From: a virus
Taxonomy: Duplodnaviria; Heunggongvirae; Uroviricota; Caudoviricetes
Length of the DNA stretch: 61,573 bases
Direction: 5' to 3' (one strand)
IMG/VR virus record: IMGVR_UViG_2778261122_000001
Location: 1-61,573 of that record
The notes under the pieces are model-generated. The model saw only the letters and a program-made list of their open reading frames with translations, was not told the origin of the DNA and ran no database searches. Below, piece after piece: positions 3,106 through 42,247 of this stretch (position 1 is the first letter of the stretch; every line of letters starts with the position of its first letter). The translations under genes and the position numbers were made by a program.

Positions 3106-3434
3106 CAGTTCACCACCTGTTCAAACTCTGCGCTGAACTCAACACGCAGCATACTGACCCGCGACGACCATTTTGCGCAGGTCACCTTTATCTGCCGCCA
3201 CTCATAAGGCGGCGTCCACAGGAAGGCTTTCCAGCCCCCGTGCTCAGCCAGAAACGACTCCAGCGCCGTGGCCTCCCAACGGGGAACAGAAAGCGTCACG
3301 CTGTACGTTTTCAGGTCGGCATTCAGCCCGGCAGGCGCTCGCTGGGAATAGCCATCACCAAAGCGCACTTTCCTGACGGAAGGGGCCGAAGCCACATCCA
3401 TACCGGGTTTCACTTTCCAGCGGAAGGTCTTCAT
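3105..3434 (-). CDS. M: Minor tail protein M
   Basis: 109 aa, lambda gpM size and position. Confidence 0.9.
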   Translation of the reverse strand: MKTFRWKVKPGMDVASAPSVRKVRFGDGYSQRAPAGLNADLKTYSVTLSVPRWEATALESFLAEHGGWKAFLWTPPYEWRQIKVTCAKWSSRVSMLRVEFSAEFEQVVN

Positions 3435-9374: not shown

Positions 9375-10400
9375 TTACGCCAGTTGTACGGACACGAATT
9401 CATCAGGGTCAGCCAGCAGCATCAGCGGTGCTGACTGAATCATGGTGAACTCACGCGCCGGATCGCCGGTAGTCACCCAGTTTTTCGGGTAACGGGCAGA
9501 GGCGTTAATGCCTTCGCGCTGTGCGTCCGCATCCTGAATACAGCCATAGGTACGCAGACCGCGTGCCTGAGTGTTCCCCAGCACCATCGTGTTGTCCGGC
9601 AGGAAGTTCTTTTTGACGCCGTTTTCCACGTACTGTCCGGAATACACGACGATGGCCACATCGCCATACATTCCCTTATAAGACACCGCTTTGCCCAGGT
9701 CTTTTACCGCTGTCTCCAGCTCGGAATGAGAGCCGCGACGGGTATCCAGCTTATCCTTGACGGCCTTGAAGGAACGGAACAGCGCCCATCCTTTCGGATC
9801 AAACACGATGATATTCACCACGCCGCTGGCGTTCAGCGCGTAGGCTTCGATATCGTCGGTCGGGTCATACGTGGACTTGTCGCGCTTGCTCCACTCCGTG
9901 CCACCGGACTGTGTGATGTTGTTTGCCGCACTGCGCCCCATATCCACCTCAACCGGATCAAAGGCTTCACCGGTCATGGTGTATTTGCCCTTAAGCACGG
10001 CAGAAACTGCCTGCATCTCTTCGACCTGGGCAATGGCCAGCTCTTCGTCACGCATGTTCTGCATGATGATGCGACGGCGGCGGTAAGCCGGGTCCGCCAG
10101 ATTCTGCGGATCTTCATCCGGCAGGCGACGCAGGGTCATCTGCGGATTCACCTCATGCTTCGGCTTGACATATCCCGGCGTAAATTCAGAGGTGGAGCCG
10201 CCACGGGAACGGATAACCTCACCGGAAACAATCGGCGAAACGTACAGCGCCATGTTTACCAGTCCCGGAATTTGTGAGAGATAGACTTTCTCCGTGGTGA
10301 AGGGATAGCTCTCACGGAAAAAGAGACGCAGAAACAGCGGATCAAACTTAAATTTCTGCTCATTTGCCGCCAGCAGCTGGGCGGTTGTGTACATCGACAT
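9375..10400 (-). CDS. E: Major capsid protein E
   Basis: Start trimmed to MSMYTTAQLLAANEQ, lambda gpE N-terminus; 341 aa. Confidence 0.9.
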   Translation of the reverse strand: MSMYTTAQLLAANEQKFKFDPLFLRLFFRESYPFTTEKVYLSQIPGLVNMALYVSPIVSGEVIRSRGGSTSEFTPGYVKPKHEVNPQMTLRRLPDEDPQNLADPAYRRRRIIMQNMRDEELAIAQVEEMQAVSAVLKGKYTMTGEAFDPVEVDMGRSAANNITQSGGTEWSKRDKSTYDPTDDIEAYALNASGVVNIIVFDPKGWALFRSFKAVKDKLDTRRGSHSELETAVKDLGKAVSYKGMYGDVAIVVYSGQYVENGVKKNFLPDNTMVLGNTQARGLRTYGCIQDADAQREGINASARYPKNWVTTGDPAREFTMIQSAPLMLLADPDEFVSVQLA

Positions 10401-10455
10401 AAAAAAATCCCGTAAAAAAAGCCGCACAGGCGGCCTTTAGTGATGAAGGGTAAAG

Positions 10456-12097: not shown

Positions 12098-12117
<20 letters not shown>
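10798..12117 (-). CDS. C: Capsid assembly protease C with in-frame nested scaffold Nu3
   Basis: GTG start after GAGGAGGAG; translation TAELRNLPHIASMAFNEP matches lambda gpC. Confidence 0.85.
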
Positions 12118-15798
<3,681 letters not shown>

Positions 15799-15824
<26 letters not shown>

Positions 15825-20078: not shown

Positions 20079-21131
20079 TTATTTCCCCACCAGCTCGTTT
20101 ATCTCTTTCACTGTCTGGTTAAACCGCTCTGACTCAAGCTCAACACCTAAGGCCCGACGCCCCAGCGCCATTGCTGCTTTTATTGTGGAACCGGATCCCA
20201 TAAAAAAATCAGCAACCAGATCACCAGGTCGACTACTGGCATTGATTATTTGCCTGAGCATATCCGCCGGTTTCTCACACGGATGTTTACCCGGGTAGAA
20301 CTGAACGGGTTTATGCATCCAGACATCGGTATAAGGCACGGAGACTGATACGGAGAAATAGCGCCGGAGAGATTTAAACTCATCCAGCAATTCAGAATAT
20401 TTGCGATTCAGTGAATCATAAGATGCCACCAGCTGGTGGTGTGGTTGTTCCAGTTGTTGTTCCTGAAACTTCTCTGCCGCTATACGGGAAAACAGTGCCT
20501 GTAACTTCCGATAGTCAGCCTCATTCGGCAACTGCCACTGACTGGCACCAAACCAGTGGGAAACCATATTTTTCTTACCTGTGGCTTCGGCAATTTGTTT
20601 TGCCGTTATACCCAGTTCGGCACGAGCATCCCTGAAATACGATATCAGCGGTGCCATTATGTGCTGTTTGAGTTCCCTTTCTTTTGCCGCATAGCTGTCA
20701 CTTTTGCCGCGATATGGCCCCTGGTAATGTTCAGCAAACAGAACGCGCTCTGTGGCAGGAAAATATGCGCGCAGACTTTCTTTATTACACCCATTCCAAC
20801 GTCCGGACGGCTTCGCCCAGATGATATGGTTAAGCACGTTGAAACGTTCACGCATCATAATCTCAATATCAGATGCCAGGCGATGCCCACAGAACAGGTA
20901 AAGGCTTCCGGCAGGTTTCAATACCCGCCAGAACTGGGCCAGACAGTGGTCCAGCCACTTAAGGTAATCTTCGTCCCCTTTCCACTGATTGTCCCAACCG
21001 TTGGGTTTCACCTTGAAGTAAGGCGGATCGGTAACAATCAGGTCAATGGAATCATCAGGCAGGGACTGAATAAAATGCAGGCAATCAGCGTTGATTAAAT
21101 CAACACTGTTTATTTTTACAGTATTTTTCAT
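20079..21131 (-). CDS. DNA methyltransferase (amino-MTase, DPPY motif)
   Basis: DLIVTDPPY near N-terminus and FFMGSGST AdoMet motif near C-terminus (motif IV before motif I). Confidence 0.8.
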   Translation of the reverse strand: MKNTVKINSVDLINADCLHFIQSLPDDSIDLIVTDPPYFKVKPNGWDNQWKGDEDYLKWLDHCLAQFWRVLKPAGSLYLFCGHRLASDIEIMMRERFNVLNHIIWAKPSGRWNGCNKESLRAYFPATERVLFAEHYQGPYRGKSDSYAAKERELKQHIMAPLISYFRDARAELGITAKQIAEATGKKNMVSHWFGASQWQLPNEADYRKLQALFSRIAAEKFQEQQLEQPHHQLVASYDSLNRKYSELLDEFKSLRRYFSVSVSVPYTDVWMHKPVQFYPGKHPCEKPADMLRQIINASSRPGDLVADFFMGSGSTIKAAMALGRRALGVELESERFNQTVKEINELVGK

Positions 21132-22429: not shown

Positions 22430-23692
22430 CTATATATCCCAGATCTCGCCATTATAAAGATGCTCGCTAATCTTTGGTGGATTTTTCTTAACATTAGGGT
22501 GACTCGCCAAAATGAGTCTTAATGTCCTGATAGCAACATAGGCCTTTATAACAATATCCCTTTGTTGTTTGAAATACTCCTGATTGAAGTTATTGTTATC
22601 GATGGCATGTGCTGGTTTTTGTCTAAGTTGCCTTACCTTTCTAAAGGTGTCAATCATATCTTTAACTGGCGCAGGATCTGTTGGCTGGAAATATTTATCA
22701 AGCCATGACTCAAGTATTTGTATAGTGCCTTTAGGCCTTACGACTATTTTCCCATCCTCGCGCTCCTCTTCAATTTCAAGCTCCACATCATCCTCGAAGA
22801 ATTTCTTATTAAGATTGTCGGACATCATTTTATCCAACAAAAGCATGAAATTATTAAATTCTGAACGAGTTGGTCGCAAAAGAAACCCGAACTCTTTAGG
22901 CATGTCATCGCTGTAATCTTTTCTAAAAAGTTCAGCCTTTCCTATTAACACGCTCATTTTATTAATTATTTTAAGTTCTTCCGTAAATGCACTAAAAATA
23001 GAAATTTTAGTCCCCCAAGCTCCTAATATGCTTGCAGCATAGTAATCGGGATGCAACTTTATATCTCCTTTTACTTCTTTCGCTGCCCAAACATTTTGGT
23101 GTTCAGGACTGAGATCACTCAGGTATCTCAAGAAAACTGCAACATATCTATTTAGACTGTCATCATAAGCAAACCCAAATGTTTTAAGCAATATTTGATC
23201 GTGTTCAGGAATATTGTCTGATTCATAATACTCATCCGTAATAGATATTTCCCCATGTATAAAGTCTGTAAAGTATGAATAACGTGGATCATTTCGGTAG
23301 TATTCCAAAACAGACAAATCAAAAGTTCTATAGTCAAATTGTCCCGCACCTCTTGCTAGCTCCATTTCATATGGTGACTTACTATAAGCAGAAAGCTTAC
23401 TAGATTTGGCTAGCATATTTTCATGGGGATATAAGCATATGTAATCTAAACTCTCTGAATCATCGAAATTCTTAAGGATATTATCCTTGGGGATTTTTGA
23501 AAACGCTTTAATATGAGGGTTATCCCCAAAACAAGCAGTTAAAATATCATCTTCGATTCCTTTTCTAACCAAAACTTTGAAAGTTTCGCTTTTGATATCG
23601 AAAAGACCATCTAACTTATAAATAGGCAATCCATTAAAATCACCTGATGAAAAATATTGTTCCTCGACTATTTCATATATTTCTTTAATCAT
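22430..23692 (-). CDS. Hypothetical 420-aa protein in AT-rich insertion downstream of Q
   Basis: Long uninterrupted ORF with AT-rich codon usage unlike flanking genes; no motif recognised. Confidence 0.6.
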   Translation of the reverse strand: MIKEIYEIVEEQYFSSGDFNGLPIYKLDGLFDIKSETFKVLVRKGIEDDILTACFGDNPHIKAFSKIPKDNILKNFDDSESLDYICLYPHENMLAKSSKLSAYSKSPYEMELARGAGQFDYRTFDLSVLEYYRNDPRYSYFTDFIHGEISITDEYYESDNIPEHDQILLKTFGFAYDDSLNRYVAVFLRYLSDLSPEHQNVWAAKEVKGDIKLHPDYYAASILGAWGTKISIFSAFTEELKIINKMSVLIGKAELFRKDYSDDMPKEFGFLLRPTRSEFNNFMLLLDKMMSDNLNKKFFEDDVELEIEEEREDGKIVVRPKGTIQILESWLDKYFQPTDPAPVKDMIDTFRKVRQLRQKPAHAIDNNNFNQEYFKQQRDIVIKAYVAIRTLRLILASHPNVKKNPPKISEHLYNGEIWDI

Positions 23693-24476: not shown

Positions 24477-25472
24477 TCAGGCCAGCACGCCAATTGCCAG
24501 CGCACGATCGATAAAACGAAATATCAGCTCCAGCTGGGAGCCATACATCTCTTCAAATGCCACGGTATCCGCATGCAGCTCGTCGTGATGCTTTCTGCAC
24601 AAAGGCAACACAAAGAGGTCATGCGCTTTTGTACCCATTCCACCCTGACCGTGACCTATCAGGTGGTGGGGATCATCAGCAGGCTTTCCACAACATGCAC
24701 ACGGCTGTGTCTTAACCCAGCGCGTGTACTTTTCATTAACCCAGCGGCGACGTTTTGGGCGTAACATAAAAGACTCCGGCGACTCTGGATCCACTTTCAG
24801 CGCCAGCACCTTTTTCGCTTTATCCTGGATAATGCTGGTGGCAGGAACCGAAGGAACAAGGTCACTCTCCCGGGTGACAGACGGCACAACAGGCTTCGGT
24901 AATCTCAGTGCCTTACGGGCTGCACTTTCCGGTAAGGCATCCGCCAGGTCATTACGAACCAGCCACCAGCACAGTTCCGGCATTGTCACAACGTGACTAT
25001 CATCAAAACCGAGATCACGGCGCACAACAGATAACACCCAGCGGGCACAGCTATCCGTTGCCATTGATTCCAGCCGTTCCGTGAACTGATCGCGCAGCTG
25101 GTTATCGCAGTGCCAGCACAGACGGATTGCGCCCGGCGCGTGTCGCATTGTGGTCATGTTCTCGCTGTGCCAGTCGGAATGAGGCCACTGGCAGCCTTTT
25201 TCACGAAGTAACCAGCTTTCAAGACATTCCACGCCACCAGCACGACGGATCACTGCCTCATTGCGGAACACGGCCCGAACGGCAGGATCATCCGCCAGCG
25301 GTTGTGATGCCGCCGGAACGGCACCACTGGCGAAAGATGAATAACGTTCCGGCTCAGGCTCCAGCAGGACACGCCCCTGCATAAACAGGGGCATCAGCTC
25401 TGAACCTGGCCTGAACAATACGATCCCCATACGCGGGGCAATTTCAGGGGTCAGTAGTGCTCTCACGGTCAC
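24477..25472 (-). CDS. nin-region protein with C-terminal Cys/His-rich HNH-like motif
   Basis: 331 aa; C-terminal [28 protein letters not shown]...CRKHHDELH. Confidence 0.55.
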
Positions 25473-27245: not shown

Positions 27246-27481
27246 AGGTCTGGTTTCACAAACTGGTTCCGCTCCTGCGATATCTCAGCCTGGCGCGGGA
27301 AATGTCTGCGTGTATCCTCTTCACAACGGTGAGCCACACGCCCACTCTGACGTAACTTGCTTGCTGACTGCAGAACTCGCTGCCGTGAGTAACCTGCAAA
27401 AGCATCCGCAATGTCTCCGGAAGTACACCCCGGATGGGCTTCAATGAATTTCTGAACGTCATTCAAAAGGCTCATGATCAC
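27206..27481 (-). CDS. Hypothetical protein
   Basis: 91-aa ORF in operon context. Confidence 0.35.
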   Translation of the reverse strand: MIMSLLNDVQKFIEAHPGCTSGDIADAFAGYSRQRVLQSASKLRQSGRVAHRCEEDTRRHFPRQAEISQERNQFVKPDLCAISMSALTTPG

Positions 27482-28419
27482 CCCCTGAATCCTGCCGGGA
27501 TCTGGCTGTAGTCCACATTGTCGTAACTGGCTTTGAAGTACGGGTCTTCGCGTTTTTCTGTGTACGTGCTGACGGACGGCGATAAGCGCAGGGAAAGTTC
27601 ATCCCATTTTTCCCGCAGCTTCGACGGGCTGAACACGTTACGGCACCAGAACGGGTCGCGGCTGACGCGGCTGTACATCTCGCAGATTTGTTTGTGGGTA
27701 CGACCGTCCTGTACACACATCAGGCGAATTTCATTTGCCCAGGCTGTCCAGTTCGGTTCTTTGGGACGAACCACCTCGCCGTCACATTCGGCGGCCTGCT
27801 CGTACAGGGCGATGATTTTTTTCCAGAGCCACTGTGCGCAGGTCAAATCATCCTGCGTTCCCCACTGGCGCTTTTTAGGGCTGAATACAACCGCATCAGG
27901 ATGGCGAGTTAAAAAATCCTGTTCAGCCTTCTGCATGTCCGGTTGCGAAGCGTCCGGACGAGAAGGTTTTTTATCTGACGGATCATGTTTTGATTTTACT
28001 GACGGATCCCCGCCAGATTCTGACGGGTGAAAACCCGCTTTTTTGCCAGATTTCGACGCATCAAATTTTGACGGGTCAGATTTTGATGCGTCAGATTTTG
28101 ACGGGTCAGAATCTGACAGTTGAGAAAATGCCGCTGCCTGAAGCTTCGCAACGTTAAGCTGATAAACATTCGACGCATTGCGGTTACCCTGGCGACGCGC
28201 CTTACGCGTTAACCAGCCTTCTGCTTCCAGCCGTGCGATAGCCGTTCTGACGGTGCTCATCCCCGCGCCAATCTGGCGGGCAATGGTTTCAATTGATGGC
28301 CAGCACACACCTTCGTCATTACTGAAATCAGCCAGGCGGGCCATAATTGCCACGCTGGATAACTTCATGCCTGACGCAGCGCAACCATCCCATACATAGC
28401 CGGTTAATTTAGTGCTCAT
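27478..28419 (-). CDS. Replication initiator protein (origin iterons inside the gene)
   Basis: 313 aa; N-terminal HTH-like region, linker SDPSKSDASKSDPSKFDASKSG encoded by the DNA iterons; lambda-O-like architecture. Confidence 0.65.
   Translation of the reverse strand: MSTKLTGYVWDGCAASGMKLSSVAIMARLADFSNDEGVCWPSIETIARQIGAGMSTVRTAIARLEAEGWLTRKARRQGNRNASNVYQLNVAKLQAAAFSQLSDSDPSKSDASKSDPSKFDASKSGKKAGFHPSESGGDPSVKSKHDPSDKKPSRPDASQPDMQKAEQDFLTRHPDAVVFSPKKRQWGTQDDLTCAQWLWKKIIALYEQAAECDGEVVRPKEPNWTAWANEIRLMCVQDGRTHKQICEMYSRVSRDPFWCRNVFSPSKLREKWDELSLRLSPSVSTYTEKREDPYFKASYDNVDYSQIPAGFRG
27970..28130. repeat. Origin iterons: about eight direct repeats of a ~15-16-bp unit (ATTTTGACGGGTCAG-like)
   Basis: Visible tandem units gattttgacgggtcag, attttgatgcgtcag, attttgacgggtcag, aatctgacag inside the replication gene. 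Confidence 0.7.
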
Positions 28420-28428
28420 GACCGACCT

Positions 28429-28767
28429 CTATTTCCCTGAATTTACGACGAAACTGTTCGAGCGGGCTGAAGCACTCATGCTCATAGCCTTCGCGGAGGT
28501 AGATAACCCGTTGTGTTTCCGGCTCCCAACGAATGACTCTGACGGGCACTCCGTAGTGATCTTTGAACCAGCGGTTAACTTGTCGCAAAGGACTGTCTCC
28601 TTTTGCCGGTTGAAATCGCCCACAGCCCACTCTGCAAAGCTGTGGGTTACAATTTCCCTGTCACCTGGTACATTCACTGCATAGCAATACTCCACCTTCG
28701 CTTTTCCACCCGGTACAGGAAGTGCAATCAGTTGCGAGCGACGGTAGTGTGTTGTTAAACTGTTCAT
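28429..28767 (-). CDS. Hypothetical early protein
   Basis: 112-aa ORF with ATGA overlap to upstream gene; alternative 73-aa ORF 28409..28630 cannot be excluded. Confidence 0.3.
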
Positions 28768-29315
28768 GCGTTAGTTTCTCCACAGTCACGACACGCCACG
28801 GCGCCCGGAGCTGCACACTCGCGGGCGTCATTACTTTCTGAAATGCAAAAAATTTTGTAGACCAGTGCTGCATGCTCCTGCAGCTTCGAAATTGAGAGGT
28901 ACAGCTCGTCATTAATTGCTGTCTTCTCATGCGGTTCCACTACACCGTCTTCGATTGCTGAACGAATCTGTTTTGAATAACTGCCGATCTGTTCAATGAC
29001 TTCCAGCAGACGCTGGTTAATATCGGCGTTGTCCACATCCTCGACGTCAGGAAGAGACACAAAGACGCCATTTGCAGACTGCGCCACAGCATCAGCAATG
29101 AAGTGAGTTCCACCAGCACGTTGCAAAATCATTGCCCATCCCAGCGGGAAAATCTGATCGCCATCGGCACGAAGGCGGTTAAATAATGCGTTCTCTGTTA
29201 CATCCAGCCAGTCAGCAGCTTCAGCGTAACCCCCCGGCAACGCTGCGATAGTTTTTCTGACAGCTTTCACGTACCACTCAGGCTGTTTGTCTACTTTCCA
29301 GTGATGCTTACCCAC
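28764..29315 (-). CDS. Hypothetical early regulatory protein at the cII position
   Basis: 183-aa ORF directly downstream of cro; positional inference only. Confidence 0.4.
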
Positions 29316-29665: not shown

Positions 29666-30358
29666 ATGAACATAGGAAACCGAGTCAGACAACTTCGCCA
29701 AGCGAAGAACATGAAAATCGCCGATCTCGCTGAAGCAATAGGAGTAGATGCGGCGAACATCTCGCGCTTAGAAACGGGTAAGCAGAAACAATTTACCGAA
29801 CAAACACTGAGTAATATTGCCAAGAGCTTAGGTGTTGATATTGCTGATCTCTTTACCTCTGCCCTCAAAAGCAATACTGTATATAAAAACAGTAATGATG
29901 AGGATGTTGCGCAGGTGAAGGATGTGTTCCGTATTGAAATGCTGGATATCAGTGCCAGTGCGGGAAATGGCCTTATCCAGGGCGGTGATGTCATTGATGT
30001 GATTCATGCCATCGAATACAGAACTGATAATGCTGTATCAATGTTCGGCGGACGACCAGCCAATCACATCAAAGTTATCAACGTTCGTGGGGACAGTATG
30101 TGTCCAACCATTGAGCCAGGAGATCTCATCTTCGTTGATGTCAGCATCAATCAGTTTGATGGTGATGGTATATATGTCTTTGGTTTTGATGACAAAATAT
30201 ACGTTAAAAGACTTCAAATGATTCCTGACAAACTGCTGGTGATTTCTGATAACCAGATTTACCGTGAATGGGGAATTACTAGCGAAAACGAACACCGATT
30301 CATGGTCTTTGGAAAGGTCTTAATCAGTCAGTCGCAAACCCTTAAGAGACATAATTAA
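29666..30358 (+). CDS. cI: CI-type prophage repressor (HTH plus S24 LexA-like autopeptidase)
   Basis: N-terminal HTH; C-terminal GDSM Ser and VKRL Lys of the S24 dyad. Confidence 0.85.
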   Translation: MNIGNRVRQLRQAKNMKIADLAEAIGVDAANISRLETGKQKQFTEQTLSNIAKSLGVDIADLFTSALKSNTVYKNSNDEDVAQVKDVFRIEMLDISASAGNGLIQGGDVIDVIHAIEYRTDNAVSMFGGRPANHIKVINVRGDSMCPTIEPGDLIFVDVSINQFDGDGIYVFGFDDKIYVKRLQMIPDKLLVISDNQIYREWGITSENEHRFMVFGKVLISQSQTLKRHN

Positions 30359-32941: not shown

Positions 32942-33291
32942 TGGAGCCATACAGCCTCACACTCGATGAGGCCTGTCATTTTCTCAAGATATCCAGACCG
33001 ACTGCCATTAACTGGATACGCACAGGGCGTCTTCAGGCAACACGCAAAGATCCCACTAAGAATAAATCTCCTTACCTCACAACACGACAAGCCTGCATTG
33101 CGGCTCTTCAGTCTCCGCTGCATACTGTCCAGGTGAGCGCGGGTGATGGCATAACAGAGGAAAGAAAATGTCACTCTTCCGCAGAGGTGAAATATGGTAC
33201 GCCAGTTTCACATTGCCGAACGGTAAAAGATTTAAACAGTCTCTTGGAACAAAGGACAAAAGGCAGGCGACAGAACTCCATGACAAGCTAA
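32941..33291 (+). CDS. xis: Excisionase-like DNA-binding protein
   Basis: [36 protein letters not shown] pattern directly upstream of int; 3' extent uncertain. Confidence 0.45.
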
Positions 33292-34331
33292 AGGCTGAAG
33301 CATGGCGGGTCAGCAAACTTGGTGAAATACCTGATATAACGTTCGAGGAAGCGTGTGTCAGGTGGCTTGAAGAGAAAGCACATAAAAAATCACTGGACGA
33401 TGACAAAAGCCGGATCGGATTCTGGCTTCAACATTTCGCAGGAATGCAACTAAGAGACATTACTGAATCAAAAATTTATTCAGCAATGCAGAAAATGACG
33501 AACCGGCGTCATGAGGAAAACTGGAAACTCAGGGCAGAAGCATGCAGAAAAAAAGGGAAACCTGTTCCAGAATACACGCCAAAACCAGCGTCCGTTGCAA
33601 CGAAGGCTACGCATCTTTCATTTATAAAGGCCCTACTAAGAGCCGCAGAGCGTGAATGGAAAATGCTGGATAAGGCACCAATTATTAAAGTGCCTCAACC
33701 AAAGAATAAACGGATCCGCTGGCTGGAGCCCCATGAAGCACAAAGGCTGATTGATGAATGTCCGGAGCCATTAAAGTCTGTTGTTGAATTTGCACTGGCA
33801 ACAGGCTTAAGACGCTCGAACATCATCAACCTTGAATGGCAACAAATAGATATGCAGCGCCGGGTGGCATGGATAAACCCGGAAGAGAGTAAATCAAACC
33901 GCGCAATTGGCGTTGCGCTGAATGATACTGCATGTCGCGTATTGAAAAAACAAATCGGGAATCATCACCGTTGGGTATTTGTGTACAAGGAAAGCTGTAC
34001 CAAACCAGACGGAACGAAAGCGCCAACAGTAAGGAAGATGCGGTATGACGCAAACACAGCCTGGAAAGCGGCGCTGAGACGGGCTGGTATTGATGATTTC
34101 AGATTTCACGACTTGAGACACACCTGGGCAAGTTGGCTGGTTCAAGCCGGAGTCCCGTTGTCAGTGTTACAGGAAATGGGAGGCTGGGAGTCTATCGAAA
34201 TGGTTCGTCGATATGCTCACCTTGCACCTAATCACCTTACCGAACACGCACAGCAAATAGACTCGATCCTGAACCCATCGGTCCCAAATTTGTCCCAGTC
34301 AAAAAATAAGGAAGGTACTAATGATGTGTAA
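33168..34331 (+). CDS. int: Tyrosine integrase, P22 Int type (thrW-targeting)
   Basis: [33 protein letters not shown] matches remembered P22 Int; C-terminal R...HxxR...Y catalytic pattern. Confidence 0.9.
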
Positions 34332-34727: not shown

Positions 34728-35024
34728 TTAACGGATCAACAGCCAGACCAGCAGACACACCACCACTGGCACAGCAAAATCCAACAAACTTCCCACATCC
34801 CACACGCGTGGATCAAAACCGCCCCACCACGGCATATTCATACGCTTGCCATGCCCGAACATTTCTATCCAGCGATATTCTGCCTGGGTGTGTTCTCGGG
34901 ATATAAAAAACACACACCCTATTACAGCCCCAGTTATCGGATCATTAAATAAACTCAAAAACAGAAACTGTAGCGATAATGATATTAGCACATGAATGAA
35001 ATGAGATATGTCCATACTTACCAA
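34728..35024 (-). CDS. Hypothetical small membrane protein downstream of tailspike
   Basis: 98-aa ORF with about three hydrophobic segments. Confidence 0.35.
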
Positions 35025-36676
35025 CTCAAAAGAATATTTACATCACCTACGCTAATAGGATTTGGAGTGACATTTTGAAATGTTACCCTGACGATATTAT
35101 CGGAAACAGCAATAGCATCTGAAATTATACCTATTGGGAGATCATTCAACACTGTCATTTGTAGAGGAACTTCATTAGATATGATATATCCGGTCAATGT
35201 TCTTTGCATTGAGAACCTGCCACTTGCTGAAATCGTGCCAACATTCAACGTTGATTTTACTTTCTTTCCTGAATATGTAACACCATTCAAATCTATATGT
35301 GAGTTATTTATTAATGTCAACGCAGAATATCCTGAAAAATCACTATTAGCCCCGGCCTGCCTTACTACAGAGAATTTATCAGCTCGTATTGCAAAGTCAC
35401 CAGTTGCTTCCGATGCATTAATGTTATTGGTAACAACAACACCTCCATCAACACAGTTAATAGCATATGTTGCATTTCCTTTTATCGTTATGTTTCTTAA
35501 ACTTAAATAAGATGCAAACTGGCATGTGGCAAAAGCAATTGCTCCATCTGATAGATACCCATCTGAAAATTCAACAGACGAAGAATACCTTGATCCTATA
35601 CACGATTGAGTTCTCGGTTTAAAAATAGATCCGCCTTTAATATAACAATCCGCCGCATGCTCAACCTTAAGAGAGTCTTCCCCTGAATTGTAAGAAGTGA
35701 ATTCTGTGCCCCTCACGCTTGCACTGTACACACATTCAAGGGAAATATTAGCATTTGATATATGAACCCCATTAACCCCAAACTGAGATCCAGAGCCAGA
35801 AACAAGAACTCCACAAACAGAGCCTCCATTTACAATCAAATTGTTTGCATCCCAAACTACGCAACTACCACATTGTGAATCAGGGTAGTATCCACCTCCG
35901 ATAATGAGTCCGTAATCACCATCTGTTTCAACAGCAACATTTTTTATGCTGTATATATTTGATCTAAATTGTATTCCTTTTGTTGTTTTTATTATGGAAT
36001 TTATTGGTTTTGCCACAACCCCGTTAACTGGGCCTGAAATTATACCATTGTGACTCATATCCAATGTTAAAACATTTCCATCCTTGGAAATTATCATCGC
36101 TCCACATGAAATGTCTCTCCTGCCAGAAAGTATACAATATTTACCAACATGAAAATTATCTGCATTCTGAACAGAAACTTTAAATATACCAGTCAACACA
36201 TCATAAGAAACATCATATACATTAACAGGACTATAATCCACACCCAATATATTCAGAGGAATATTATCAAACTCATCATAATGTGAATAACCATCAGGAA
36301 TGTGAATATACTGCCCGTATTCTATCTGTGATCTAAGCTGATCGGGATCGTACTTCAGCACATTAGGAAAATAGAACTGCTGTGATCCATATGCATCGTA
36401 CACAGCCATAGAATGCCCTTGTACAGTAACGAACTTAGCAATCTGTCCGTTATATACTGGATACCCTGCGGCATTGATGACGATTGGCTGTGCAACAGGA
36501 ACGTGAGAACCATCTTCGTTTTCTACATAAACCTGAATCTGGTTTTCTGGATTTACCGGGTCAGTATCAATTTTACCGATATAAATTTTGCCATTGGCTA
36601 CGGCTTTAAAAGAACGCGCCATAGTGAAGAGTTGCGATGGCATCGATACGATCACATTGGCTGTAATGTCTGTCAT
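35018..36676 (-). CDS. Tailspike protein with P22 gp9-type N-terminal head-binding domain
   Basis: First ~110 aa ([43 protein letters not shown]) match remembered P22 gp9; remainder divergent. Confidence 0.85.
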
Positions 36677-36876: not shown

Positions 36877-37755
36877 TTAAAGTTTAATTGAGTGGCACGC
36901 TCTATCACGTATCGCTGCGAATGAAGCTATCTCTTTAAGTGCCCAGCTTTGCTCAGCCATTAAATGGCGAAGTGCTTTTAGTTCAGCTCTTACTGCTGAA
37001 ACGTCATACCCCGCTTTTGTCAGAATATTGATTAGTTTATACGCCGGGCTGCATTCAACGAGTGCGCTTCGGTCAAGAGCAACAGTATCACCGCATTGCT
37101 GCCTGATAATGGCGTAAGGTGCATTTTCAGCAAACCATGAAATCGGGAAGTTAATATCCAGTTTTGGCGCTGGTAACTCTTCTTGTTTGCCGATGAACTC
37201 GCCTTCAAGCACTACCCTGTGGATGTACTCTACGGCCAGCGGGATTTGTTCAATTGAAAGTTCATCAATGCTGTCAATACCAAAACGCTGATGAACCATA
37301 TTGTATGCATCGTCATAGCGAAGTCCTTTCTTTCCTACCAGCATGTTTACTGCATCGCGTAGCGGTGTTCTTTCCTCAACAGTGGTTTTCTTTCCTTTTA
37401 CATACTCGTCATGTTTGCGAATTGAAGGCAGAACTTCTGCTGTTACCCACTTGCGGAATTTGTGCGGGACTGAACCTTTATTGACTGCATCGCGGCAGCG
37501 CAGAACCAATGTATACATACCTGATTCGCTCACAATGCTTATATTCTGCTCACCACCAAGGGTGTAACTTAAAGTTACTCCCTTTTCATCGTCATCAAGT
37601 GCAGTAAGCGCCTTGCGTGAGTTAGTCAAAGCTAAAGCATCACAAACATCTTTAGCTACAAACCACGGCTCGCCGCACTTGTTAATGACGCGAATTTCAC
37701 TGTCGCCAAATTTGAAGATGGTGAAATCGTTTTGTGCCTTTGCTATACTTTTCAT
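36877..37755 (-). CDS. ant: Antirepressor Ant
   Basis: 292 aa, antirepressor-like N-terminal domain; arc-ant-tailspike order as in P22. Confidence 0.8.
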
Positions 37756-37817
37756 GTCAATATTTCCTAATCCGATTTGTTGATACCGAAGCCCTGACTG
37801 TTACCGCAGTTGGGGCT

Positions 37818-38042
37818 TCAACTTTTCACTTCTTTAAAGTGCCTACCTTCTACAGTTGCTCTGAGATAAAAATTCTTATCTTTACCGTTTAGTGCTTCCC
37901 AAGCATCAACAATGCACTTATTACAGATGTGGACTTCTCGATAACCAATAGCTTTCCTGTCAATATTAGTGAACATAACAGTTTCTTTATCTGTCAATGT
38001 GGATGCATGACAGAAGTCGCAATCTATATAAGATACCTTCAT
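37818..38042 (-). CDS. Hypothetical Cys-rich protein inserted between arc and ant
   Basis: 74 aa with CDFC...CNKC spacing. Confidence 0.35.
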   Translation of the reverse strand: MKVSYIDCDFCHASTLTDKETVMFTNIDRKAIGYREVHICNKCIVDAWEALNGKDKNFYLRATVEGRHFKEVKS

Positions 38043-38197
38043 ACCGTTATCCCCTCTCTCTTCAGGCTGTCCATCACTCGCTTGTAAATCTCAGAGTTAA
38101 CAGATCGCCCGTTCTCTTCCGCCACCTTACGCACCAAATCCAATACTTCTTTAGGCCACCGCAAATTGAACTGCGGCATTTTGCTCATTCCTTTCAT
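38039..38197 (-). CDS. arc: Arc repressor
   Basis: Start trimmed to MKGMSKMPQFNLRWPKEVLDLVRKVAEENGRSVNSEIYKRVM; matches P22 Arc, 52 aa. Confidence 0.9.
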   Translation of the reverse strand: MKGMSKMPQFNLRWPKEVLDLVRKVAEENGRSVNSEIYKRVMDSLKREGITV

Positions 38198-38287
38198 ATT
38201 CACCTCACAATATAGGTCCACCGTGGACCTATTGAGAATATAGTAGAGTGCTTCTATCATGTCAATACACTAACTTGGGGTGATGGC

Positions 38288-38536
38288 ATGGCTAGAGACG
38301 ATCCGCACTTTAACTTCCGTATGCCTTTGGAAGTAAGAGAAAAATTGAAATTAAGAGCAGAGGCTAACGGAAGGTCAATGAACTCTGAGTTATTACAAAT
38401 CGTTCAGGATGCTCTCTCAAAGCCATCACCGATTGCAGGCTATCGAGACGAAGCTGAACGCTTGGCTGATCAGCAAGCAGAAATTGTTAAGAAGATGGTG
38501 TTTGAAACCCTGAAAAAAATGTACGAGACCAGATAG
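38288..38536 (+). CDS. mnt: Mnt repressor
   Basis: MARDDPHFNFRMPLEVREKLKLRAEANGRSMNSELLQIVQDALSKPSP matches P22 Mnt; divergent from arc. Confidence 0.9.
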   Translation: MARDDPHFNFRMPLEVREKLKLRAEANGRSMNSELLQIVQDALSKPSPIAGYRDEAERLADQQAEIVKKMVFETLKKMYETR

Positions 38537-38578
38537 GTCAATGTTTGTTCGTTGATATAAAATAACAAGGTATACATT

Positions 38579-39178
38579 GTGATTGAGATAGGCGTTATGG
38601 CCATCCTGAATCAAGAGCCAGGAAAAATTGAAAACGTTTTTTCTGACATATCAACATCTATCGAGCGTTCAATTTCAGACTTTGATCGCAGTCATAGCGG
38701 CTCTTTGTCTAAAAAACAGGCTTCTGAAGCTCTTAGCAAGATCTACTGCGTTATGTCACCTGTAGAGGAAGTTTGCAAAAAGTACATTACATTCATTGAC
38801 ATATTAAGTAATGGTACGGAAGAAGATATTTCCTCACTTGATATTCAACATGACGATGTAGATATGTTGAACGATCAGATATCTAAGCTTGATTATGGTA
38901 TCGCGAAACTGTTGTATACCTTCTTCATCGCTGAGAACAGCGATGCGTGGAAGCCCCATATGTCAACTCTTACAACAATGAAAAACCACTCAATAAATAC
39001 TTTTATAGAATACAAAAGGCTAACTATGGGGCTTGTGACGCTAGCAATGCAGCACATACCACTATCATATGCTGAACCTGAAGAGTTCACTGAAGAAGAG
39101 TTGGCTTCATTCAAGAAATCAGTTGAAGATTCACATAAAAGATTTGGCATGGAAGCACCAAAATGGAAAACCGCATAA
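38579..39178 (+). CDS. Hypothetical protein X1 (first gene of cluster downstream of mnt)
   Basis: 199-aa ORF, GTG start, AT-rich, no TM segment, no recognised motif. Confidence 0.55.
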   Translation: MIEIGVMAILNQEPGKIENVFSDISTSIERSISDFDRSHSGSLSKKQASEALSKIYCVMSPVEEVCKKYITFIDILSNGTEEDISSLDIQHDDVDMLNDQISKLDYGIAKLLYTFFIAENSDAWKPHMSTLTTMKNHSINTFIEYKRLTMGLVTLAMQHIPLSYAEPEEFTEEELASFKKSVEDSHKRFGMEAPKWKTA

Positions 39179-39582
39179 GCATTGTTGTAGATGCAGCGGC
39201 TGGACCATTAGAACAATACTTTGCGAAGGCTCTTGCAAACTACAAAAACAGAGGCACCGTTTCAGCTTATCTTGGTAAAATTGGTGGGTTTGAGAGAAAC
39301 CATCACGCCGTCTTATCGGGAATTTACAAGTCGCACATCAGGATCCCTGGAGTAGATGATCCTTGGTTAAAAACAACGCCAATACATCGTAGAGTTAGCG
39401 ATAACTTTTTGATATTTGCGGTACACAACACATATCCAATTCATATCCAGATCATTGCTATCATTAAACCTGATGGTCATGAGAAGGTAAAAAAACTATT
39501 GCCAGCCATCATTGATATAACTGAAAAAAGATTCCAATCTCTAAATGAGAGGGAGCTTAACTCGTTGATTTCATACAAATAA
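39163..39582 (+). CDS. Hypothetical protein X2
   Basis: 139-aa ORF overlapping X1 by 16 nt; no recognised family. Confidence 0.55.
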   Translation: MENRISIVVDAAAGPLEQYFAKALANYKNRGTVSAYLGKIGGFERNHHAVLSGIYKSHIRIPGVDDPWLKTTPIHRRVSDNFLIFAVHNTYPIHIQIIAIIKPDGHEKVKKLLPAIIDITEKRFQSLNERELNSLISYK

Positions 39583-39604
39583 AATATCAACTAAGGAGGT
39601 TGGC

Positions 39605-40027
39605 GTGTTTGGCATATTAACGAGAAGCAAGATAAAAAAATTAAGGGCGGAACTTGTCGAAACACAAAAATTAGCTTCACATTTTTACAAAATGAAACAC
39701 GACGCTGAAGAGCGTGCATTCGTTGAGTTATGCGACCTATCTATTCGTATGGGGGTAGAGCCAGATGTAGCGGCAAAAACTCAAGAAGGCGTTAATATAC
39801 TTGCAGATGTTGTTTTAAACAGACAATATGCGTTTTATCTAAACGAAAAAGCCATTCAAATTTACTCGCAAATTTTCCTCTTGGAAAAAAGGAGAGGAAC
39901 TCGCGATAGAGAAGAGTGGCTAAATGAAGTTGTTAAAAAATCTGGCTGGGAAGTTGTTTCATCAGAGCTACCTTTTATTTGTGCTGATTTAATCGAAGAG
40001 GCAAAAGAGCGCCTATCCGATGGTTAG
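39605..40027 (+). CDS. Hypothetical protein X3
   Basis: 140-aa ORF after GGAGG; no recognised family. Confidence 0.55.
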   Translation: MFGILTRSKIKKLRAELVETQKLASHFYKMKHDAEERAFVELCDLSIRMGVEPDVAAKTQEGVNILADVVLNRQYAFYLNEKAIQIYSQIFLLEKRRGTRDREEWLNEVVKKSGWEVVSSELPFICADLIEEAKERLSDG

Positions 40028-40059
40028 CCAAAGCCATCCTTGGCTTTATGGAGATTAAC

Positions 40060-40125
40060 ATGGTAACAGTTGGTTGGATTATCGCGTTCCTTATTGCATT
40101 TTGGGTTGGTCGTCACTGGCTGTAG
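40060..40125 (+). CDS. Candidate 21-aa hydrophobic peptide (MVTVGWIIAFLIAFWVGRHWL)
   Basis: ATG six nt after GGAG, following hairpin 40030..40047; overlaps 3' end of gene 16 on the opposite strand; below ORF-track cutoff. Confidence 0.3.
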   Translation: MVTVGWIIAFLIAFWVGRHWL

Positions 40126-42247
40126 TATCTTGCTGAGATAACCATGTGATAAACCCCGTGCGAGCAATGGTTTTTGCTTCATCTGTTGACAGGGTTTTCT
40201 CCCATCTCTTAAATGCATTAGATCGCATCAGCTTCCTTTCTATTACGCGTCTCACTTCTGCTCTGTCTACTGGTGCGTTTTGCAGACGAAATAGCATTGA
40301 TTTAAACTCAGGAGAGGACAGTAGAGCATCAGCAGCCTTTATCCTGCTTGTTTTCCCTGACATCAATGCAGCCGATATTACCCCTGAAGCACCTGCTCCC
40401 AAAAGGCCAAATGAGCTTGTAATTCCTTCCGCCGCAATAGCTTTTGATGCTATTCCATAAATTTTTGCGAGACTACCCTTTTCTTTCAGAAAGTTATTAA
40501 CTTGCTGATCCACAAGGCTACTAGCATACTGCTTACCAGTATTGAGTCTATTCATAGCCTTAGCTGCTTGATAAATCGTATCAAGGCGCTTTGATGCATC
40601 TGTGCCAATAGCATCACGGAGAGCCTTCATATTGGCCCCATTGCGTGACATTCCGTTATACCATTTTACAAATCCATCAACTCCTAATTGCTGACCAGGT
40701 GATTTGGCATAGCTGGTAAATGCTTTATTCATTGAGGTGAGCGCAACTTCCTGCCGCATATCCTTTGGAATCGACTTCATTAATTGCCTAAAGTCGCCAC
40801 CGTTTCCTTTTGCCATATTAACAACAGCACTTTCAACTTTTGGAATTGCTGATTGCTGAAGTTTTCTACCCAAGACGGTTACAGCATCATCTTCAATGGA
40901 TTTTCGTTTTTTTACCAACTCCTTACCAAGCGTCCATAATTCCCCTGCGCCATATTTTTCTGCGACAGCCTGTTGGTCATCTGTTATGGCTGCATATAAC
41001 TTTTTAAGAACACCTGTTTCTTCATCCTTGAATGGACCAGAGCCTTTGCCAATAGCTTGTCCAACCTGCTTTCTAGCGAGATCTAAACGCCCATACGTTG
41101 GCAAGGTGTTTGGATCAAGTCGGTTCAATGTCCGCTTCATTATTGGAGATAATTCATCAATTCCACCTATGTCATCAGCAAAATCCTCTAAAAAATTCAA
41201 TGTATTAGTTGCCTCAATCCGGTCTCTTACAGGTACCTTTTCGGCAATTTTGTTGTAGATGTTATCTGACTGATTTTGTAATGATGAAATGGTTTTATCA
41301 AAATTATCTGCAAGCCTGTCAGAAACCAGTTGCTTATCAAGGTTTCCCCCAAATGAAGTTATCATTTCATCAGCTTTTCTTCCTAATTCAGTAATAAAAC
41401 GCTTATGCGCCTCACTAATCTCTGTTCCAGGGAGACTTGCCACTGCATTATCAAGAGCCCTGACAGCAGGATTATTAGAGATCATGCCTGGAGTGGCATA
41501 ATTTTCCAGTTCTAGCTCACGAATAGCATTTATCGCGTTAAAATCAGGATTAACTTCATCGGCGAAATCTTGAATAGCTCGTTGCCCACCAATAAATTTA
41601 TTATCCATTGCACCAGCAGCTTTCTTTAACGTTGCTTTAGATGATTTACTGCCCATCCCTACGGATGAGCGATAAATATCTCCGGCACTATTTTTAATTT
41701 TTCCTGCAATCTTCCCAAGCGCTGGACCAACAATCTCGGCTACAGGGCCAGCCACAGCGCCAATAGCAGCGCCGGAAGCAACATCGCTATTTGTTCCATT
41801 GGCTACAATAGCCCCTTCTCCAGCACCAAGCCCTGCGGCGGCAGCCAGCCTTGCCGCCCCTTTGGGAACCTGAGAAATAATCCCACCACCACTAACAAAT
41901 GGCGCTGCTTGTCCAACAAACTCACCAACATCTTGTGCGGTTGATGGTTTTGCCGCTAACTTCTGCTGTAGAGACTGAATTGCGGCTTGCTCTTCTGGTG
42001 TCATATCCTGAAACAGGCCAACACCTTTACCAACATCCATCAATCCACTGAGAACGCCATACATAAAACGGTCGAAACCGTTAGCATTATTAACAACATT
42101 TTCCTGTCTGGAATTTTCCTCTGGCGAAACCAAAGGTGATTGCTGCTGTTCTGGTTGGGAATCAAGCACAAAGCCATCAGGAAGTTGTGAGTTATCAGGC
42201 TGTTCATCCAGAACAAACCCCTCTGGTAAACCTACATTGGTTGCCAT
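40091..42247 (-). CDS. Ejection (DNA transfer) protein, P22 gp16 type
   Basis: 718 aa, Gly/Ala-rich; position before gp20/gp7/gp14 as in P22. Confidence 0.75.
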   Translation of the reverse strand: MATNVGLPEGFVLDEQPDNSQLPDGFVLDSQPEQQQSPLVSPEENSRQENVVNNANGFDRFMYGVLSGLMDVGKGVGLFQDMTPEEQAAIQSLQQKLAAKPSTAQDVGEFVGQAAPFVSGGGIISQVPKGAARLAAAAGLGAGEGAIVANGTNSDVASGAAIGAVAGPVAEIVGPALGKIAGKIKNSAGDIYRSSVGMGSKSSKATLKKAAGAMDNKFIGGQRAIQDFADEVNPDFNAINAIRELELENYATPGMISNNPAVRALDNAVASLPGTEISEAHKRFITELGRKADEMITSFGGNLDKQLVSDRLADNFDKTISSLQNQSDNIYNKIAEKVPVRDRIEATNTLNFLEDFADDIGGIDELSPIMKRTLNRLDPNTLPTYGRLDLARKQVGQAIGKGSGPFKDEETGVLKKLYAAITDDQQAVAEKYGAGELWTLGKELVKKRKSIEDDAVTVLGRKLQQSAIPKVESAVVNMAKGNGGDFRQLMKSIPKDMRQEVALTSMNKAFTSYAKSPGQQLGVDGFVKWYNGMSRNGANMKALRDAIGTDASKRLDTIYQAAKAMNRLNTGKQYASSLVDQQVNNFLKEKGSLAKIYGIASKAIAAEGITSSFGLLGAGASGVISAALMSGKTSRIKAADALLSSPEFKSMLFRLQNAPVDRAEVRRVIERKLMRSNAFKRWEKTLSTDEAKTIARTGFITWLSQQDTTASDDQPKMQ

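Follow-up and report, generated by a model that had tools for sequence, protein, structure and literature searches.

What takes the place of SieA between mnt and the ejection protein gene 16 of a P22-like prophage? The question is raised by a 61,573-nucleotide stretch of viral DNA (IMG/VR record IMGVR_UViG_2778261122_000001, Caudoviricetes; hereafter the window, at its full length), in which the slot that holds SieA in P22, between genes 16 and 9 (PMC10883804), contains three open reading frames (ORFs), X1, X2 and X3, of 199, 139 and 140 residues. These three, referred to as the cluster (positions 38579–40027, plus strand, mnt side), are co-oriented on the mnt strand, opposite to every structural gene (16, 20, 7 and the tailspike are all on the minus strand), as stated in the original prediction for this locus. 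That prediction regarded them as one unit of proteins without recognizable motifs, and gave preference to superinfection exclusion or another anti-phage function. Our analysis suggests that the interval between mnt and gene 16 is instead composed of two independent cargo cassettes, X1–X2 and X3, in a P22-like, CUS-3-type Escherichia coli prophage, and we hold this explanation, taken as a whole with a toxin–antitoxin (TA)-type X1–X2 and a separate X3, to be likely.

X1, X2 and X3 are real coding genes, because the proportion of non-synonymous differences (pN 0.14–0.29) is low though synonymous sites are saturated (pS 0.77–0.94) in comparisons with orthologues from Salmonella, Pectobacterium or Serratia, i.e., all three are under purifying selection. 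They are visibly AT-rich, as had been noted, with a G+C content of 38.7% for the cluster (38.5–39% for each gene), compared with 46.9% in the P22-like part and 49.5% over the entire window.

The X1–X2 gene pair

X2 matches the Pfam family YafO_toxin (PF13957) with an E-value of 1.1e-11 and 45.1 bits (cut-off 25) over profile positions 2–98 of 101, which overturns the earlier statement that no motif is present in any of the three proteins. The orthologues of X2 and the partners of distant X1 relatives likewise match PF13957, and a protein identical to X2 carries the RefSeq/PGAP name ‘type II toxin-antitoxin system YafO family toxin’. By sequence, X2 is a member of the YafO family of the BECR/RelE superfamily, and a distant one that is not orthologous to YafO of E. 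coli K-12. The idea of X2 as a toxin, previously ranked as the weaker one, becomes the best-supported idea through the Pfam match and the RefSeq naming. PF13957 has been treated as a family of BECR-fold, RelE/ParE-superfamily, mRNA-degrading toxins with about 1,000 members and with the antitoxin gene preceding the toxin gene (PMC11980606). Residues H58, R60, R77, S79, D80, H88 and H106 are invariant across the X2 clade and are candidate catalytic residues.

The stop of X1 and the start of X2 overlap by 16 nucleotides, as predicted, with the ATG of X2 located within the AAA-TGG (Lys-Trp196) codons of X1. The same 16-nucleotide overlap is present in Salmonella, Pectobacterium and Xenorhabdus, and other pairs overlap or abut. 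Among X1-family loci with visible genomic context, at least seven unrelated settings show a PF13957 gene immediately preceded by a member of the X1 family, with X1 relatives down to about 19% identity. In phage CUS-3 the pair corresponds to ECRS218_0007/0008 (98.4% DNA identity), two genes in the same place after mnt that are annotated as ‘hypothetical’ in the record, and it is also present in the UTI89 prophage (98.4–99.3% DNA identity for CUS-3/UTI89); CUS-3 differs from our prophage by a second mnt-like gene and by hkcB in place of X3. A Salmonella P22-like prophage has the order mnt-X1-X2-gene 16 and no X3. Outside prophages, a lone X1–X2 pair is located between an ABC-transporter operon and gcvP in the Pectobacterium chromosome, and Xenorhabdus carries the pair at two different housekeeping loci, prfC|rimI and slt|ABC-F. 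More distant pairs are found just after the cI-type repressor gene of a lambdoid prophage, in a rexAB-like position (X1 23% identical), beside a transposase in a metagenome contig (X1 20% identical), and in the metagenomic Flyfo siphovirus Tbat2_3, where an X1-like gene (hhalign 98.4%, E-value 9e-15) and a YafO gene whose product is 37% identical to X2 form a moron between tape-measure and distal tail genes.

Because X1-family/YafO pairs recur in such unrelated contexts, we infer that X1–X2 is a mobile, two-gene, antitoxin-first TA module of type II-like organization. In line with type II systems, the genes are adjacent and co-oriented with the putative antitoxin gene first, they move as a unit, and they encode an acidic (X1, pI 4.9) and a basic protein (X2, pI 9.6). 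Divergence is faster in X1 than in X2 (66–68% versus 75–81%, and 42% versus 54–58%). The chromosomal stand-alone copies demonstrate that X1–X2 is able to persist as a selfish module.

X1 itself is assigned from sequence as the putative antitoxin of an undescribed family. The toxin family and the kind of system are known, RefSeq already annotates X2, and the published phage CUS-3 already carries the pair; what is new is the family of the putative antitoxin. Our literature search found no paper that mentions the accessions of the X1–X3 proteins, nor one that links YafO to P22-like prophages. X1 has no match in Pfam, NCBIfam or among PDB sequences, its sole PHROG (18235) is a function-unknown group, and fold searches return generic bundles only. 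The family has 16 members in a word-indexed search across 5.8 billion proteins and 18 in a full HMMER profile scan across 1.84 billion representatives, and a profile search of genome contigs with a narrow X1 alignment retrieves Pectobacterium only. Distant relatives retain residues 1–6 but have no counterpart of the internal Met7, which supports the GTG as the start of X1.

AlphaFold2 models X1, with a predicted local distance difference test score (pLDDT) of 77.7 from 11 sequences, as a bundle made up entirely of helices. A linker of low confidence (residues 158–171) comes next, and then a C-terminal helix (172–188) and a tail that extends to residue 199. The motif SHxRxGxExPxW in this tail is common to all YafO-paired members. 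AWxPH is nearly family-wide, with the Trp alone invariant and two members deviating at the Pro or the His, and ERSISDFDRSH is kept without change by the aligned close relatives and by the relative P0016 (27–29% identity), but degenerates further out. Assignment of X1 to HEPN proteins on account of its four-helix bundle with R...H was rejected, as an Rx4-6H match is lacking and the N-terminal motif does not extend to the whole family.

A second X1 subfamily has a four-residue deletion in the tail and another C-terminal extension, PxWVxSGxDFVxW, and is paired with a different family of 127–130 residues (phrog_5954) with the motifs GLPGRNKPSTGVS and LWHYHIG, which is possibly another toxin family. 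By eye this partner resembles a diverged YafO, however, an hhalign probability of 0.07 led us to reject the assignment. Three such pairs were located (Table 1), one of which (L008) is likewise located behind mnt, in a phage whose tail genes differ.

Compared with yafN–yafO of E. coli K-12 (dinB-yafNOP), the X1–X2 locus has the same small adjacent genes, with a basic toxin-family protein of PF13957 preceded by its (here putative) antitoxin, but X1 is a 199-residue bundle unrelated to YafN (Phd/YefM-type, about 97 residues). A further difference is that X1–X2 is prophage-borne, mobile and, as far as can be judged from its position, driven from the phage promoter Pmnt, whereas yafNO is an SOS-regulated operon. 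Control by LexA as for yafNO was considered and rejected; the only CTG-N10-CAG (38606–38621) lies inside X1, has a G+C-rich spacer and is probably due to chance. PanA (Panacea/SocA) provides a parallel in its larger-than-usual antitoxins that are combined with different toxin families, and a Panacea gene is found in the same slot in E. coli UMNK88, however, X1 has no Panacea domain and belongs to a tiny family.

X3 and the cargo slot

The sieA-equivalent position proposed for the cluster is supported by its surroundings, namely gene 16 on the right, with the slot located between genes 16 and 9, and an immI region of P22 type in which Mnt, Arc, Ant and sar were all identified. The match to sar antisense RNA (72.7 bits versus a gathering score of 43) confirms the P22-type immI. 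The Pmnt-like and Pant-like promoters oppose each other face to face, with 10/12 and 11/12 matches at the pair, and a face-to-face Pant/Pmnt layout is the arrangement of P22 immI. The gene 16 homologue was assigned by its position before gene 20 (PF16928) and gene 7 (PF25688).

The cluster itself does not behave as one unit of three genes. X3 is, on sequence grounds, a separate single-gene cassette consisting of a Shine–Dalgarno (SD) sequence, the ORF and a hairpin, because each of X3 and X1–X2 occurs without the other. The two are distributed independently among 5426 complete E. coli genomes, of which 44 carry X1–X2 (44 likewise for the X2 protein), about 30 carry X3, and only one, MS14385, carries both. 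X1–X2 occurs without X3 in CUS-3, UTI89, Salmonella, Pectobacterium and Xenorhabdus. X3 occurs without X1–X2 directly after mnt in a Serratia prophage, in a P22-like prophage contig from a sequencing-run assembly (55% identical), and in E. coli after a divergent P63C-domain gene, after a ClpP-like gene, or beside a SocA/Panacea antitoxin gene. The boundary of the X3 cassette at 39589 is located 7 nucleotides after the X2 stop and 3 nucleotides before the SD sequence, and the shared sequence ends in the hairpin. At every locus where it occurs, X3 takes the terminal position of the slot, next to gene 16.

The comparison of the interval across P22-like prophages, which had been proposed as a check, was carried out and yielded X1–X2 and X3 as independent cassettes. 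Other P22-like prophages carry a SocA/Panacea antitoxin gene with a 102-residue ORF, a ClpP-like protease with a P63C-domain protein, or a small YobH-family membrane protein in the slot, and judged from these sequences the mnt-to-gene-16 interval is a cargo-exchange hotspot with conserved joints. The occupant in CUS-3, hkcB, is unrelated to X3 in sequence, and has weak coiled-coil-type NCBIfam matches only, all far below cut-off.

X3 has homologues in five clusters among 5.8 billion proteins, and was not found in 50,697 phage records. Pfam, PHROG, PADLOC, NCBIfam, PDB and fold searches gave no family or fold match. The family and structure search suggested earlier for all three proteins was thus informative for X2 (PF13957), returned generic bundles for X1, and gave no fold match for X3. 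The X3 model (pLDDT 80, based on 4 sequences only) consists of a long helical hairpin and two short helices, and would make X3 a cytoplasmic helical-hairpin orphan.

X1–X3 and SieA share the slot between genes 16 and 9, the mnt strand and expression from the prophage, which in the case of X1–X3 is predicted. SieA, however, is a polytopic inner-membrane protein with the motif FxRYPxEAxxFNK (PMC10883804), whereas X1–X3 are predicted to be soluble and have neither the motif, which is absent from all six frames of 38200–40300, nor similarity to SieA. The maximum 19-residue Kyte–Doolittle means of 0.82, 1.52 and 0.75 for X1, X2 and X3 indicate no transmembrane (TM) segment, and the view that the three proteins are not SieA-like holds.

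Downstream of X3, the hairpin was found where it had been described, with 7 base pairs and a TCCT loop. It constitutes a joint that the X3 cassette and the gene-16 flank have in common, and its pairing is kept in E. coli UMNK88 via one compensatory change from G-C to U-A. A role as a strong terminator was rejected, since its energy is unremarkable (z = −1.1) and there is no T-run; it is a candidate weak terminator or RNA end. The small hydrophobic peptide that had been suggested next to it was borne out in part: the ORF exists, and a GGAG is located 6 nucleotides before its second ATG. Its status as a gene did not hold up; 7 of 8 changed codons relative to E. coli A28 are non-synonymous, the start is absent in the UMNK88 arrangement, and the ORF accompanies the gene-16 allele rather than X3, as it stays where a YobH-family gene replaces X3 (Salmonella phage S.Kent 1-2-1, E. 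coli A28). It is probably non-coding, and on these three grounds a type I-like toxin or membrane peptide was rejected.

Expression, mechanism and alternatives

Because a sequence scan from Pmnt to the hairpin downstream of X3 reveals nothing in between that resembles a promoter or a terminator, mnt-X1-X2-X3 is probably a single transcript from Pmnt in the lysogen, which agrees with the earlier expectation of lysogen expression together with mnt. X1–X2 would then have no promoter of its own and would be read from Pmnt, and be on in the lysogen. Late transcription in P22 crosses the slot in antisense orientation on its way to gene 9; here, late rightward transcription towards gene 9 would in the same way run antisense over X1–X2.

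By analogy with its family, X2 would be an endoribonuclease-type toxin that cuts mRNA and stops translation, and X1 would be its cognate neutralizer that acts when bound. Translational coupling through the 16-nucleotide overlap may ensure that X1 is made in stoichiometric excess. In the model, contact with X2 would most likely be made by the C-terminal helix and tail of X1 (residues ~172–196, including SHxRxGxExPxW) that follow the flexible linker. Speculatively, the payoff would be protection of an abortive-infection type when the supply of X1 fails, and/or stabilization of the prophage; an anti-phage or prophage-stabilizing role for X1–X2 is plausible. The recurrence of the pair behind lysogeny repressors (mnt in three cases, cI in one) favors a function in the lysogen. 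The arrangement resembles that of lambda rexAB and of prophage TA and abortive-infection cargo in being co-transcribed, presumably so here, with the lysogeny repressor, and one X1–YafO pair directly follows a cI-type repressor; there is, however, no sequence relationship to RexAB, which is membrane-depolarizing and not a TA system of RNase type.

Several observations weigh against a TA-type X1–X2. X2 scores 14.2 bits against the NCBIfam equivalog PRK09885, far below the cut-off of 153 for orthology to K-12 YafO, and a search of the PDB found no YafO structure with which its catalytic residues could be compared. X1 exceeds the usual size of a type II antitoxin and is similar neither to YafN nor to any other known antitoxin, so that the upstream YafN-type (Phd/YefM) antitoxin expected of the YafO family is replaced by an unrelated protein. 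The DNA-binding domain and autoregulation typical of type II antitoxins were likewise not found; no helix-turn-helix, ribbon-helix-helix, AbrB or Phd domain was detectable in X1 by Pfam, NCBIfam and fold searches, where absence of detection is not proof. The proposed check against PADLOC was run (PADLOC-DB v2) and gave no link to a described defense system, with no significant match for any of the three proteins, i.e., a weak PtuB match for X1 (E-value 0.005, 14.5 bits) and none for X2, X3 or the small ORF. The pair was not found among 72,556 plasmids, which weakens a classical addiction reading, and the single transcript from Pmnt is deduced from sequence only.

Among the alternatives, it is possible that X1–X2 is a purely selfish addiction or stabilization module with no anti-phage activity, the loss of which would kill or slow the cell and in this way protect the immI and late region. 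The occurrence of the same pair in the non-phage housekeeping loci of Pectobacterium and Xenorhabdus, like selfish chromosomal TA modules, and the lack of a significant PADLOC match speak for it, whereas the recurrence in lysogen-expressed prophage positions, i.e., behind mnt in three phages that have diverged from one another and behind a cI-type repressor, the presence as a moron in the tail module of the Flyfo siphovirus and the absence from plasmids speak against it.

The idea that X3 is a cytoplasmic exclusion or anti-defense factor that acts on ejection proteins or incoming DNA of P22-like phages appears doubtful to us. In its favor are the constant position of X3 next to gene 16 in the SieA slot of E. 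coli and Serratia prophages and its purifying selection, and hkcB, which occupies the same slot in CUS-3, has coiled-coil-type matches, if only weak ones below cut-off; against this stand the lack of any homology or fold match in the searches made, an AlphaFold2 model based on 4 sequences, and the absence of a TM segment in X3, while SieA acts in the inner membrane.

It is unlikely that X1 is foremost a sensor or regulator, whose bundle would detect a signal from a phage or from the cell and then release or switch on the YafO-like effector. The folded domain of X1 is large and well conserved beyond binding needs, including ERSISDFDRSH and AWxPH, but conservation of the bundle is equally well explained by oligomerization or stability. 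Improbable, too, is a combined scheme in which X1 represents a new antitoxin/sensor family that ties a YafO-type RNase to the repressor circuit as a dead-man's switch and, independently, X3 is the first soluble exclusion factor of the SieA slot, with ejection proteins as its target; here, a superinfecting phage would shut the Pmnt or cI promoter (through Arc-type repression or shut-off of host transcription), the cell would be starved of X1 and X2 set free, and the immunity operon would work as an abortive-infection system.

A single three-gene superinfection-exclusion or defense operon that replaces SieA is hardly credible, as the co-orientation, tight spacing, shared low G+C content and lack of internal promoters or terminators of X1, X2 and X3, in a slot that SieA occupies in P22 (PMC10883804), are outweighed by their joint presence in one E. 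coli genome only as against 44 with X1–X2 and about 30 with X3, by the occurrence of X1–X2 alone in Pectobacterium, Xenorhabdus, Salmonella and CUS-3 and of X3 alone after mnt in Serratia, and by the cassette boundary 7 nucleotides past the X2 stop.

Surrounding features and significance of the slot

The window comprises two tandem prophages, one of lambdoid siphovirus type (1–34331) and the P22-like one (35018–61573), with the lambdoid prophage abutting the P22-like one at its tailspike end. In the lambdoid prophage, a 420-residue ORF without Pfam, PHROG or PADLOC match is located between a DNA methyltransferase and an HNH endonuclease. A 74-residue ORF between arc and ant contains two CxxC pairs (CDFC and CNKC) and has no family match; in MS14385, RefSeq annotates a longer version of 89 residues. 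The tailspike is short (552 residues), and because its receptor-binding part has a low G+C content (37.7%) and no Pfam match, this part is probably a recently exchanged specificity domain.

Table 1 Coordinates of features in the window and, where a locus number is given, in related loci
Feature	Position	Strand	Remarks
X1	38579–39178	+	GTG start; all-helical; putative antitoxin; phrog_18235
X2	39163–39582	+	PF13957 match
X3 cassette	39589–40027	+	shared junction starts at 39589 (AACTAAGGAGG)
X3 ORF	39605–40027	+	GTG start; pI 5.8; AAGGAGG 6 nucleotides upstream
Hairpin	40030–40047		AAAGCCA-TCCT-TGGCTTT
Small hydrophobic ORF	40048–40125	+	25 residues (21 from 40060); overlaps last 35 nucleotides of gene 16
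Gene 16 homologue (ejection protein)	40091–42247	−	718 residues; right border of cargo slot; no Pfam match
mnt	38288–38536	+	82 residues; Arc-like ribbon-helix-helix PF03869 (E-value 1e-27) and Mnt C-terminal PF11423 (E-value 5.5e-15)
Pmnt-like promoter	38232–38260	+	TTGAGA-17-TATCAT; opposes Pant-like promoter
Pant-like promoter	38265–38237	−	overlaps Pmnt-like region
arc	38039–38197	−	52 residues from RefSeq start; left side of immI
74-residue CxxC ORF	37818–38042	−	
sar antisense RNA	37757–37823	+	Rfam RF00262
Bro-N antirepressor (Ant)	36877–37755	−	immI
Tailspike	35018–36676	−	P22 head-binding domain at N-terminus
Lambdoid prophage, tape measure	3431–5992		
Lambdoid prophage, major head	9375–10427		
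Lambdoid prophage, portal	12098–13699		
Lambdoid prophage, TerL	13899–15824		
DNA methyltransferase	20079–21131		
420-residue ORF	22430–23692	−	
HNH endonuclease	24477–25472		
Lambdoid prophage, O-like	27478–28419		
Lambdoid prophage, CII-like	28764–29315		
Lambdoid prophage, CI-like	29666–30358		
Lambdoid prophage, integrase	33168–34331		
Slot variant, E. coli UMNK88	L030, 2006–3148		
Slot variant	L017, 4359–5919		
Slot variant	L029, 2796–3002		
Slot variant	L028, 3277–3486		
Second-subfamily pair	L008, 1455–2457		after mnt
Second-subfamily pair	L026, 1728–2716		
Second-subfamily pair	L027, 247–1123		
Flyfo siphovirus Tbat2_3 pair	L031, 2373–3363		

The partners of YafO toxins in E. coli are mostly unidentified: when the species was surveyed with SLING, known antitoxins made up only 8% of the 13 partner clusters that accompanied YafO_toxin hits (PMC10790755). 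X1 would represent one such YafO partner family, recognizable by the markers AWxPH and, in the YafO-paired subfamily, SHxRxGxExPxW. With this assignment, the ‘hypothetical’ block in CUS-3 and in the prophages of UTI89, RS218 and other K1 and extraintestinal pathogenic E. coli becomes a testable module. The exchange slot, which accommodates SieA, TA modules of YafO type (as proposed here) and Panacea type, and orphans, is a good place in which to seek exclusion and defense functions.

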